A stretch of 63,325 nucleotides of DNA, filler included. It is 5 parts of 5 records of this genome, joined end to end, with 100 filler letters (N's around TTAATTAATTAA, not from the genome) between each part and the next. Parts side by side here need not be neighbours in the genome. Positions count along the whole stretch, not along the records: positions 14,710 to 34,925 come from SRR2962707_5176; 4 more parts are not named here. One strand, written 5' to 3'. Under the pieces are notes generated by a model. That model was not told the origin of the DNA and ran no database searches. It saw only the letters and a list, made by a program, of their open reading frames with translations. Every line of letters starts with the position of its first letter. Positions within the stretch are counted from its first letter, which is position 1. The position numbers and the translations under genes are program-made. Below, piece by piece: positions 19,691 to 22,723 of the stretch.

Positions 19691-19809
19691 CGTCATGGAC
19701 GGCCCGGAGGGTGACTGCCATGGACGGCAGTCATAAAAAATTGCCGGGAGCAATTTTAAATGTTGCTTCAGTGACGGCCCGGAGGGTGGCCGCCAGGGAG
19801 GGTGGCCAT
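19691..19809 (+). repeat. GGA-loop hairpin module, copy 1 (internal duplication; recurs at 21975-22047)
   Basis: GACGGCCCGGAGGGTG occurs twice; six GGA motifs, mostly in hairpin loops. Confidence 0.7.
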
Positions 19810-20807: not shown

Positions 20808-21022
20808 GCAATACCTCCCAATGGGCTGGCGTCATGCTGGCGACAGGCGCGTCTCTAAATTTGCCTTTAAAGACAAACACCTGTAGAAATCCCGCCACGC
20901 GCCACACGCGTGACGGCGCGCATTATATACTACGGGCTCGCCTCCGTCATATCCCTTGTTTATGCATGGGTATTTGCGGAGACAGGGCGATGCCCTCCAT
21001 TGATGCTCGTAACCGGACCGCC

Positions 21023-21658
21023 ATGCCATTGCATCCCGCTCAACGCCTTTTGCACCAGGCCGCTTTCCTGAAAAGCGCGCAAACCGTCGAACAGTGCCCC
21101 CCTGACGAGGGCCTGGAAGTGGCATTCGCCGGGCGCTCCAACGCCGGCAAGTCCAGTGCCATCAACCGCCTTACCGGCCAGCGCAGTCTTGCTCGCACCT
21201 CCAAGACACCGGGCCGGACCCAGTTGTTGAACTTTTTCACCCTGGACGAGCAACGCCGGCTGGTGGATCTGCCCGGCTATGGCTACGCCAAGGTGGACAA
21301 AGCGGTACGCATGCAATGGCAGGAGCATCTGGACGACTACCTGGCGCGCCGCGAATGTCTGACCGGCCTGGTGTTGTTGATGGACATTCGCCACCCGCTC
21401 CGGGAATTCGACCAGTTGATGCTCGAATGGTCCGCCCGTTCCGGAATGCCGCTGCTGATCCTGCTGACCAAGGCGGACAAATTAAAGTTCGGCGCCGCCA
21501 AAAGCGCCTTGATGCAGGTCACCAAGACCCTCAAAGATCATCCCGCGCCACTGCGGGTGCAGCTTTTTTCCGCCACCTCCGGGCAGGGCTGTGAGCAAGC
21601 CTGGGACCAAATGGCCGAGTGGTTGCGAATCGAGGACGAAGCCCCTCCCGCGATCTGA
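21023..21658 (+). CDS. yihA: Ribosome-biogenesis GTPase YihA/EngB
   Basis: [23 protein letters not shown] and TKADK. Confidence 0.96.
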
Positions 21659-21787
21659 CCGGAACTGCCCATTTGTGTCACCCGGCGCCCAATTTTGTCG
21701 GTCCCACGATCCCATCAATACCAGACCACTTCCGGCAGTGAGCGCCAACTCTTTGAATTTTGGCTATTTTTCCCGTTTTCACGAAAC

Positions 21788-21803
21788 TGGCACAGCCCTT
21801 GCT
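21788..21803 (+). promoter_or_regulatory. Sigma54 (-24/-12) promoter
   Basis: TGGCAC-AGCCC-TTGCT with exact GG-N10-GC spacing; no credible CDS downstream. Confidence 0.8.
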
Positions 21804-21813
21804 CCGTATCGGG

Positions 21814-21998
21814 TGCAATACCGGCCCGGACCGAGGCATCGAAACGGGCACCGCCAAAACATCGCTGGGGGGCGATTCATGGTGGGGCCCAGGCCACGGT
21901 CCAGAGGAAGGGTGTGACCGCCGGAGACGGGGGTCATAAAAGAAGGGGGGATACCCGGGGCCTGATCTTCGGGTAAAAAATCGCCGGGAGCGATTTTT
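21814..21998 (+). ncRNA. Putative sigma54-dependent G-rich small RNA
   Basis: Starts at the predicted +1 of the sigma54 promoter; hairpins ATCGC-TGGGGG-GCGAT, TGACC..GGTCA and TACCCG..CGGGTA; ends at a hairpin plus T5. Confidence 0.5.
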
Positions 21999-22047
21999 GA
22001 CGTTGCGCCAGCAACGGCCCGGCTGGGTGACCGCCATGGAAGGCAGG
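21975..22047 (+). repeat. GGA-loop hairpin module, copy 2
   Basis: Same four-hairpin order as 19735-19809, with compensatory stem changes. Confidence 0.7.
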
Positions 22048-22051
22048 TTGC

Positions 22052-22203
22052 AAAAAAAATCCCTGGCAGCAATTGGGGGGGAAGGGAACGACTTCGCTGC
22101 CAGGGAGGCTTGCCGCCCCGGCCTCCTGGGGAAGAGGCCGGGGTGTCCAGAAGCTACGAACCGGCGAGGGTACTGGGGGATCGGGGGTTACCAGTCCGTA
22201 GCT
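22052..22203 (-). ncRNA. Putative sigmaE-dependent three-hairpin sRNA with C-rich loops (positional analog of ErsA/Spot 42)
   Basis: Three consecutive stem-loops with C-rich loops; the last is followed by U8; the promoter's predicted +1 coincides with the first stem base. Confidence 0.72.
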
Positions 22204-22208
22204 GTAAA

Positions 22209-22238
22209 TTAAGACGGCTCCACCTCAACGAAAGTTCC
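22209..22238 (-). promoter_or_regulatory. SigmaE/AlgU-type promoter
   Basis: GGAACTT-N16-GTCTTAA on the minus strand. Confidence 0.78.
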
Positions 22239-22269
22239 TGCCGGTTCCATCTTTTACAAATTTCATGAT

Positions 22270-22328
22270 GGGGATCACAGGCTGGCCCGAGGGCTCCCGC
22301 ACGAAGGCCACTGTGTCCCCCTTTTTTT
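22270..22328 (+). terminator. Long hairpin with T7 tail on the plus strand
   Basis: GGGGA-T-CACAG...CTGTG-TCCCC with inner TGGCC/GGCCA stem, followed by CTTTTTTT. Confidence 0.55.
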
Positions 22329-22390: not shown

Positions 22391-22723
22391 CTACTGCTTC
22401 CAGGGCTTGCCGCGGGTGTCCTCGCGGTACTTGAGCTCCCTGTGCATGGCCGCCTTGGCCAGCATGTGCGCCGACACCGGCGCCGAAATAAACAGAAACA
22501 GAGTGATCAGAATCTCGTGGAGATGCAGGGCATGCTCGGTCCAGGAGAAGTACACCAGCGACGCCATGATGGTACCGCCCACGCCCAGCGTGGTGGCCTT
22601 GGTCGGGCCATGCAGGCGCAGGAAGAAATCCGGCAACCGTACCAGCCCCAGAGAGCCGATCAGCGCGAACACCCCGCCAATCAGCAGGAAAATCGCGGTG
22701 ATGTATTCGATTACGATGTCCAT
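22391..22723 (-). CDS. phaG: Multisubunit cation/H+ antiporter subunit G
   Basis: RLPDFFLRLHGPTKATTLG; last gene of the operon. Confidence 0.92.
   Translation of the reverse strand: MDIVIEYITAIFLLIGGVFALIGSLGLVRLPDFFLRLHGPTKATTLGVGGTIMASLVYFSWTEHALHLHEILITLFLFISAPVSAHMLAKAAMHRELKYREDTRGKPWKQ

Follow-up and report, generated by a model that had tools for sequence, protein, structure and literature searches.

A conserved candidate sigma-54 promoter faces an ErsA-like small RNA gene in the engB-mnhG gap and may drive a G-rich antagonist RNA

Why should a small RNA (sRNA) gene with a sigmaE-type promoter be faced, across a short intergenic gap, by a promoter of the sigma-54 class? The question is raised by a 732-bp gap between an engB/yihA-type GTPase gene on the plus strand and mnhG on the minus strand. 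The gap lies in the window, by which we mean the whole 63,325-nucleotide stretch of DNA that was analysed (G+C content 59%); the host of this locus is an oil-degrading marine bacterium. A preliminary description of the same DNA had read the gap as an RNA-only circuit, in which a sigma-54-driven RNA on the plus strand acts as a sponge for a sigmaE-driven sRNA on the minus strand. Our analysis leads to a modified picture. The sRNA is the orthologue of a known, highly conserved RNA of the envelope-stress type, the facing promoter is credible and presumably RpoN-dependent, and the RNA that it would drive may antagonise the sRNA as a cis-antisense transcript, as a G-tract sponge or as both. We hold this last reading tentatively and give it slightly less than an even chance; that a plus-strand RNA exists, where it ends, how it pairs and what it does to the sRNA is what we infer from sequence. 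The gap is free of conserved open reading frames, as had been claimed: the only ATG-started frame past the predicted plus-strand start spans 12 codons, is not conserved and lacks its ATG in one relative (L002). We found no sigma-70-like promoter between positions 21500 and 22500, and Rfam at its gathering thresholds has no match in the whole window.

The minus-strand sRNA is deeply conserved. A 215-bp block comprising the sRNA and its promoter is present in 19/19 genomes of the genus and also outside it, in further genera of the same family. Scanning genome_contigs for an sRNA pattern gave 51 matches, four of which (L039, L044, L063 and L073) are chance hits in unrelated phyla; the 47 genuine loci come almost solely from Alcanivorax, Alloalcanivorax and Alcanivoracaceae records. 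Across a 21-sequence alignment the sRNA is near-invariant, the window copy being 97% identical to that of genome G006, and a covariance model built from the Alcanivoracaceae alignment (R1) scores the window copy at 164 bits. Upon folding 36 sequences from named and unnamed loci with RNAalifold, we obtained three stem-loops with double compensatory changes in 22 of the 32 pairs, and their loops (CCCCGAUCCCCC, UCCCC and CCUUCCCCC) are invariant or nearly so. The window copy itself folds at -70.1 kcal/mol (z -5.0). Stem-loops 2 and 3 are joined by a single-stranded linker, GGCGGCAAGCC (22104-22126, minus strand), whose GCAAGC is kept in 36/36 sequences; conserved like the C-rich loops, this linker could be a contact for a protein, perhaps Hfq, or a second seed.

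This sRNA is not new. Wei et al. (2022; PMC9788540) saw sRNA4758272 of Alcanivorax dieselolei B-5 by differential RNA sequencing (dRNA-seq), placed it in the intergenic region between B5T_04289 (a ribosome-biogenesis GTP-binding protein) and B5T_04290 (Na+/H+ antiporter subunit G), and described it as conserved Alcanivorax-wide, with two copies in some species. The minus-strand sRNA of the window is the orthologue of sRNA4758272, and detection by dRNA-seq together with the covarying pairs bears out the sRNA with C-rich loops that had been proposed. Its proposed start, near 22203 on the minus strand, fares well on one condition. If the number 4758272 is a coordinate on contig 1 of G006, it corresponds to L004:1652, which aligns with window position 22203, seven bases past the -10 element; the proposed start is matched if the number denotes the 5' end in G006 numbering. 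The sigmaE consensus promoter that was said to face the sigma-54 element is likewise present (22238-22209, minus strand) and is retained in 21/21 aligned sequences, with a conserved -35 GGAAC(T)TT and -10 GTC(T/C)TA. An anti-sigma RseA/MucA domain was found in 4/4 genomes tested, and the exact motif GAACTT-N15-18-TCNNA is absent upstream of the candidate rpoE gene in G001. About 25 nt upstream of the -35 element, a AAATTTGTAAAAG block (22240-22262, minus strand) is present in 20/21 aligned sequences and might serve as an UP-element or bind a regulator.

Some relatives carry the sRNA gene twice. Two tandem copies, 415-560 nt apart, are found in L027-L031, L036, L038, L041-L043, L045, L047, L053, L056, L058, L062, L065, L068 and L072. 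The tandem copies in Alcanivorax differ systematically in stem-loop 1 (GCUACGG vs GCGACGG) and are sibling sRNAs.

To which lineage does the sRNA belong? At relaxed thresholds Rfam matched it to anti-hemB (RF02837; 22.8 bits), Pseudomon-1/ErsA (RF01719; 18.9 bits) and sX13 (RF02232; 13.8 bits). The anti-hemB and sX13 RNAs resemble it as small RNAs with C-rich loops, but these weak matches lie far under the gathering scores and the two families belong to other proteobacterial classes. The match to ErsA also falls short of its gathering score (50 bits), and with stricter filters RF01719 has no match in G001 or G003. Across 121 genomes of the order, the same model matches in 12 genomes, twice above the cut-off, and within the window's own family it reaches 37.6 bits on one of the two tandem sRNA copies in G020. 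We also searched in reverse, with R1 against 34 kb of Rfam-ErsA loci (scores of 11-25 bits, E 5e-5 to 0.085, on a rough calibration). R1 matched at the ErsA position in 6/11 loci (L085 with 24.8 bits, L076 with 23.6, L080, L075, L084 and L083); four of the remaining loci gave no match and one a match elsewhere in the locus.

Genomic context points the same way. The ersA gene is located in the polA-engB gap (PMC8575079) and ErsA of P. aeruginosa is sigma22-dependent (PMC13613067). In the loci studied here, engB adjoins the sRNA in nearly all relatives (tblastn with the engB C-terminus as query), the engB coding sequence lies downstream of, and convergent with, the Rfam-ErsA matches in L075, L077, L079 and L081, and a GGAACTT-N16-TC..A promoter also precedes Rfam-ErsA matches in other families. 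The window sRNA thus shares with ErsA its place beside engB, a sigmaE/sigma22-type promoter motif, three stem-loops followed by a Rho-independent terminator and a C-rich loop in the terminator hairpin, and the two covariance models match reciprocally, in both directions below threshold. It differs from ErsA in its neighbour on the other side, which is mnhG (the last gene of the mnh operon, on the same strand as the sRNA and upstream of it) and not polA. ErsA pairs with targets through a long, U-rich unstructured domain (PMC8575079); the window sRNA has in its place a first loop rich in C and, between stem-loops 1 and 2, a linker of 9 nt, UUCUGGACA. Because of the synteny with engB, the promoter type and the reciprocal sub-threshold matches, the window sRNA is best described as a divergent ErsA relative in the same chromosomal niche, which by the Rfam criterion stands outside the family. 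In a genome of another family, G036, no fewer than two or three ErsA-type copies crowd into 700 bp of locus L080 (Rfam matches at 1433-1545 and 1676-1788, an R1 match at 1156-1254); tandem multiplication of ErsA-type sRNAs is therefore recurrent in the order.

The sigma-54 element that faces this sRNA is an exact consensus, as the preliminary description had it (21788-21802, plus strand), with GG of the -24 and GC of the -12 ten bases apart in TGGCAC-N5-TTGC. By itself this is not rare evidence, because the window holds two exact and ten cores with at most one mismatch, against 8.25 expected. The other exact TGGCAC-N5-TTGC (21147-21161, minus strand) lies inside the engB coding region, is also found in L001-L004 and is probably kept by coding constraint. 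Weight comes rather from conservation. Five distinct window-type sequences are available (the window, L001=L049, L002=L071, L003=L061 and L004; L001 is the locus of G001, the nearest genome, with 99% identity across the gap), and in 5/5 of them the block CACGAAACTGGCACAGCCCTTGCTCC, the core plus 11 flanking bases, is invariant while the flanks vary. The entire plus-strand region was found by blastn in only 4 of the 19 genomes of the genus. The promoter reaches further: a convergent GG-N10-GC promoter (at most two mismatches allowed, GG and GC intact) stands 41-249 nt from the sRNA 3' end in 20/20 relatives' loci, as TGGCAC, CGGCAC, TGGCAT or AGGCAT followed by N5 and TTGC. With the sigmaE-type promoter kept in every aligned sequence, both promoters are thus conserved in relatives, a check that had been proposed for the circuit. 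Among the genuine genome_contigs loci, 21/28 with a single sRNA copy have the sigma-54 promoter, a count that leaves out three further 2-mismatch motifs (inside engB or in a locus without engB); in two-copy loci we judged it absent in 19/19, leaving out a lone 2-mismatch motif inside engB in L036. Facing sigma-54 promoters are found in 0/12 Rfam-ErsA loci, which sets the window locus apart from them.

Sequences upstream of the promoter may serve its activation from a distance. The exact IHF consensus WATCARNNNNTTR, as given in PMC3045617, lies 42 or 64-65 nt upstream in 10/24 unique upstream regions, and a palindromic GTCA-N6-CGAC box, a putative activator site, lies 112-114 or 136-137 nt upstream in 13/24 unique sigma-54-positive loci (L016 and L017, anchored on a spurious motif, are excluded). 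Promoter, IHF-like site and upstream box would together make up the architecture of an activatable sigma-54 promoter, and rpoN is present in 4/4 genomes tested. These positions bear on one alternative, namely that the site makes no functional RNA at all. A poised or roadblocking polymerase could insulate engB from the sRNA gene, and the G-tract on the plus strand would be the complement of pyrimidines used in minus-strand termination. The element indeed sits exactly between two convergent genes, the minus strand has C/U-rich sequence after each hairpin that follows the sRNA U-tract, and no plus-strand transcript is known. The conserved positions of the IHF-like site and the upstream box nonetheless fit an activatable promoter, substitutions in the transcribed region preserve plus-strand pairs through G-U where the minus strand would have A-C mismatches, and a terminator tail hardly accounts for the structured expansion of 160 nt seen in the sub-clade of the window. 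We judge this alternative quite unlikely.

What would the antagonist RNA look like? The plus strand of 21814-21975 folds at -75.4 kcal/mol (z -3.13, reached by 0/200 shuffles), compared with -63.5 kcal/mol for the opposite strand (z -2.12, 6/200 shuffles), and the Alifold consensus of the five sequences gives -69.1 for the plus vs -53.6 for the minus strand. Eleven one-sided changes preserve plus-strand pairs via G-U; the same cells are A-C mismatches on the minus strand. The G-run said to be displayed in a hairpin loop, ATCGC-TGGGGG-GCGAT, is confirmed at 21861-21876, and in the consensus fold AAAAGAAGGGGGGAUA (21938-21953) stays unpaired, with a hairpin on either side. Over otherwise dissimilar leaders we noticed a recurring module, consisting of a purine/G tract, a hairpin and an A-tract complementary to the sRNA U-tail; the A/G tract precedes the last hairpin in most leader types.

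The G-rich stretch could in principle be the mirror image of a decayed second copy of the minus-strand sRNA. Tandem copies in 19 genome_contigs loci give this idea a precedent, and the minus strand of 21861-21876 forms a hairpin with a C-rich loop. With filters off, however, R1 detected no further copy, its top minus-strand fragment in 21814-21975 reaching 3.2 bits. When the stretch is aligned locally to the sRNA, 285/300 shuffles in one orientation and 293/300 in the other do as well or better, no sigmaE-type promoter lies between the copies, and the plus strand folds better than the minus. We give this reading very little credence. An origin of the G-rich RNA by inverted or direct duplication of the sRNA was rejected as unsupported, its alignment scores lying under those of shuffles.

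The proposed antagonism rests on pairing with the C-rich loops. All four complementary 7-mers that had been listed are at their given positions on both strands, and the 7-mer count is reached by 26/981 genomic windows. Using a windowed, accessibility-corrected energy score, we found the best duplex between AGGGGGGA and UUCCCCCCC of stem-loop 3 (-13.8 kcal/mol); the accessible G-tract scores -13.8, -13.0 and -6.8 kcal/mol against the loops, a three-loop sum of -33.5. Genomic windows reach the best-site energy in 2/150 cases and the sum in 0/150 (mean -11.2, sd 6.0). Full-length RNAduplex energies were uninformative, with long duplexes at -112.8 vs -113.2 for shuffles. We extended the analysis to other leaders, taking 12 of 27 sequences, one per distinct type, each compared with its own sRNA and with 30 windows of its own locus (L032, L036, L037 and L070, with a 2-mismatch motif inside engB or a locus without engB, were omitted). 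For L003, L009, L011, L014 and L020 none of the 30 background windows reaches the observed pairing, and for L005, L007, L012 and L064 two or three do. In 9/12 other leader types, cognate pairing potential thus ranks within the highest tenth of the background windows, and on this twelve-type test G-richness toward the C-loops is common, not universal. How long the G-runs are over the last 120 nt does not tell loci with the sigma-54 promoter from those without it.

A number of results weigh against an antagonist, and we set them out together. The 7-mer positions number 7, compared with 6.9 +/- 3.3 in dinucleotide shuffles, 520/1000 of which reach the count. The preliminary description had named pairing no stronger than in shuffled controls as a refuting result, and with dinucleotide shuffling this is what we obtained: 112/150 dinucleotide shuffles are as good at the best site and 85/150 in the three-loop sum. 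Any G-rich RNA would pair equally well. Since shuffles match the observed pairing and genomic windows do not, the signal is one of G-rich composition and not of word arrangement, and the significance of the G-richness rests on composition together with conservation, not on particular words. The original caveat, that the matches could reflect chance or an old duplication, holds in its first part, the 7-mers being at shuffle level; the second, a duplication origin, finds no support in local alignment. In the leader test L006 shows no enrichment (5/30 background windows), and L059 and L060 have perfect sigma-54 promoters and no G-tract pairing. The sRNA loops are invariant, which makes co-variation with a partner unreadable, and the related genomes are non-independent observations. 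In the plus-strand consensus fold, 1/48 pairs shows a double change, and structural support is weak because the five sequences are about 90% alike. A plus-strand terminator past the sRNA gene is clear only in the window's sub-clade. Finally, the main text of PMC9788540 gives a single sRNA in this gap, and sRNA4758272 is the only name in it that begins with sRNA4757 or sRNA4758.

Leaders such as L059 and L060, which keep the promoter without G-tracts, would be expected if the sigma-54 RNA were an independent regulator that happens to share an sRNA-prone gap, acting in trans on pyrimidine-rich mRNA sites or binding CsrA. Composition alone would then account for the pairing with the sRNA. CsrA was found in 4/4 genomes tested, the window RNA contains GGA four times, twice in largely unpaired sequence, and AGGA/GGAUGGA motifs occur in several of the short leaders. 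Four is a low number, however, next to nine in CsrR1 and six in CsrR2, the only two such RNAs predicted among the 549 sRNAs reported in all in PMC9788540, and no Rfam Csr/Rsm family matches the window RNA. The short leaders (32-63 nt) lack a terminator of their own, and co-residence alone does not explain a promoter that in all 20 loci points at the sRNA and keeps within 41-249 nt of its 3' end. An independent regulator is in our view unlikely. The window RNA does not fit a CsrA-titrating sRNA of the CsrB/RsmZ type, judged by the GGA count, the two largely unpaired motifs and the Rfam result.

Where would a plus-strand transcript end? In the window, the A-tract that separates the two RNA genes carries an inserted dispersed repeat resembling repetitive extragenic palindromic (REP) elements. 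This repeat is missing from the locus in L003 and L004, where the plus-strand hairpin and A-tract directly abut the complement of the sRNA terminator. REP-less loci and all short-leader types have no plus-strand hairpin with U-tract before the sRNA gene, and a hairpin with U-tract beyond it, at 22270-22328, is kept in the window and in L001-L004; there the minus strand has a weak U-tract only. The simplest reading is that the ancestral sigma-54 transcript would have covered the entire sRNA gene in antisense. The first REP hairpin of the window and T5 (21966-21996) form in our own fold a possible plus-strand terminator, which would yield an RNA of ~180 nt. An automated terminator scan lists none of the three hairpins discussed, which rest on separate folds. 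The RNA-only sponge circuit is supported in part, in that both promoters are conserved, the sRNA is real and the G-tract is single-stranded in the predicted fold, but it would not be purely trans-acting, as REP-less relatives predict a cis-antisense RNA. The REP-like element measures ~75-100 bp, comprises one A/T-closed hairpin, a T-run and then another hairpin, rich in GC, and is apparently flanked by A-runs here; its copies in related genomes are partly in tandem with a period of ~75 bp, and the window contains a second copy at 19734-19802.

Table 1. Features of the engB-mnhG gap and its flanks (positions along the window).
Feature	Position	Strand	Basis or remark
engB/yihA-type ribosome-biogenesis GTPase gene	20834..21658	+	Pfam MMR_HSR1, E 7e-18; convergent with the sRNA
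Candidate upstream activator site GTCACCCGGCGCCC, only the GTCA half-site kept	21677..21690	+	111 nt upstream of the -24 element
IHF-like site, WATCARNNNNTTR with one mismatch	~21746..21760	-	read by eye, coordinates approximate
Candidate sigma-54 (-24/-12) promoter TGGCACAGCCCTTGC, TGGCAC-N5-TTGC	21788..21802	+	exact consensus, conserved in relatives
Predicted sigma-54-driven G-rich non-coding RNA	21814..21975	+	start placed from the promoter; fold
Predicted single-stranded purine/G tract AGAAGGGGGGAUA	21941..21953	+	best predicted site for the C-rich loops
REP-like dispersed repeat in the A-tract between the RNA genes	21975..22052		related genomes each have dozens
ErsA-like sRNA with three stem-loops, loops rich in C and a terminator with U-tail	22053..22203	-	covariation, fold, orthologue of sRNA4758272
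SigmaE/AlgU-type promoter GGAACTT-N17-TCTTA	22209..22238	-	kept in 21/21 aligned sequences
Predicted plus-strand intrinsic terminator beyond the sRNA gene	22270..22328	+	hairpin of ~-28 kcal/mol + U7; fold
mnhG, Na+/H+ antiporter subunit G	22391..22723	-	Pfam PhaG_MnhG_YufB, E 8e-27

These elements suggest how the antagonism that we tentatively prefer could work. Each of two alternative sigma factors would control one of a convergent pair of non-coding RNA genes in the gap. From the sigmaE/AlgU-type promoter would come a 151-nt Hfq-type sRNA, a divergent member of the ErsA lineage that lies beside engB across Pseudomonadales, with four invariant C-runs in its three loops, presumably for base pairing with target mRNAs at G-rich ribosome-binding regions. 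From the enhancer-dependent sigma-54 promoter, with its IHF-like site and palindromic box, would come an RNA carrying the purine/G tract, the hairpin and the A-tract that abuts the sRNA 3' end. When the activator fires, this plus-strand RNA would antagonise the sRNA by one of two routes or by both. As a target mimic, its G-tract (four G-rich segments in the window's lineage) would fill the C-rich loops. Where the REP-like insertion is lacking, transcription may go on in antisense across the sRNA gene as far as the terminator near ~22330, resulting in a perfect duplex, in polymerase collision or in both. In the window, the REP-like insertion may act as an earlier terminator and leave the purely trans-acting form of ~180 nt. 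A narrower history, in which Alloalcanivorax captured a sigma-54 promoter and evolved a dedicated anti-sRNA, first cis-antisense and later a 160-nt sponge with several G-tracts that the REP-like insertion uncoupled from the sRNA gene, seems to us possible and on balance rather doubtful.

If true, the antagonism would be a testable case of RNA-only cross-talk between two alternative sigma regulons. Through the dedicated anti-sRNA, if true, another signal with no relation to envelope stress would use RNA to cancel what sigmaE puts out; such an anti-sRNA would link the two regulons by base pairing and make visible an evolutionary path from antisense RNA to trans-acting sponge. The series of loci supplies natural variants for such work, namely loci with two sRNA copies and no promoter, and loci whose leader is short, long and G-rich, or long with the REP insertion added. 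The analysis would also place sRNA4758272 in the ErsA lineage. It may further bear on how ErsA repression is relieved, for which the candidate mechanisms in a 2026 paper in Nucleic Acids Research include no RNA antagonist.

Contigs from sequencing runs were also compared with the locus. In X2 a single contig of 20.8 kb spans the entire locus. X10 contributes 240 nt on 22062-22301 and one repeat piece, X17 matched to the repeat alone, and the X1 contigs break within the conserved sRNA. The contig ends fall on the repeat, the A-tract, a hairpin or strain-shared sequence and are uninformative on start, end, strand or absence of the plus-strand RNA.

How much of this arrangement is already known? 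G-rich sponges, cis-encoded antagonists and sigma-54/IHF-dependent sRNAs that act on another sRNA are all established. The claim that the arrangement itself was undescribed holds in part: the sRNA had been published, and a literature search in which most subscription journals fell outside the coverage returned no sigma-54 RNA facing a sigmaE- or ErsA-type sRNA, in Alcanivorax or elsewhere. One of the closest cases is sRNA4758272 itself, which occupies the same gap between a GTP-binding protein gene and mnhG, is conserved and has two copies in some species; the main text of PMC9788540 makes 0 mentions each of ErsA, RpoE and RpoN and describes no sigma-54 element, facing promoter or plus-strand RNA.

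Control logic of a similar kind is known from GlmY/GlmZ and GlrR (QseF) of Enterobacteriaceae. There, too, an sRNA gene depends on sigma-54 and IHF and has upstream activator sites (PMC3045617), its product GlmY works against the fate of another sRNA, and there are links to envelope homeostasis and rpoE (PMC3045617, PMC6075780). GlmY differs in acting as a protein decoy without base pairing (PMC3045617), and the GlrR box TGTCN10GACA occurs in 0/24 upstream regions here. For a cis-encoded antagonist, a known case is CJnc180/CJnc190 of Campylobacter jejuni (PMC8687705), which is processed by RNase III and experimentally shown, whereas the overlap in the window is predicted; a sigma-54/sigmaE logic is not described in the abstract of that work. 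For a sponge, known cases are RosA of Bacillus subtilis, which sequesters RoxS and FsrA, and RsaI of Staphylococcus aureus (PMC8216469). Both belong to Firmicutes and not to Hfq-type Proteobacteria; RosA is controlled by sigmaA and CcpA and encoded apart from its partner, and its pairing was shown experimentally, whereas that of the window RNA is predicted (PMC8216469). What RosA and RsaI share with the RNA proposed here is the design: a stand-alone RNA with several G-rich regions, some of them single-stranded, complementary to the C-rich regions of the sRNA, in a sponge under its own transcriptional control (PMC8216469).

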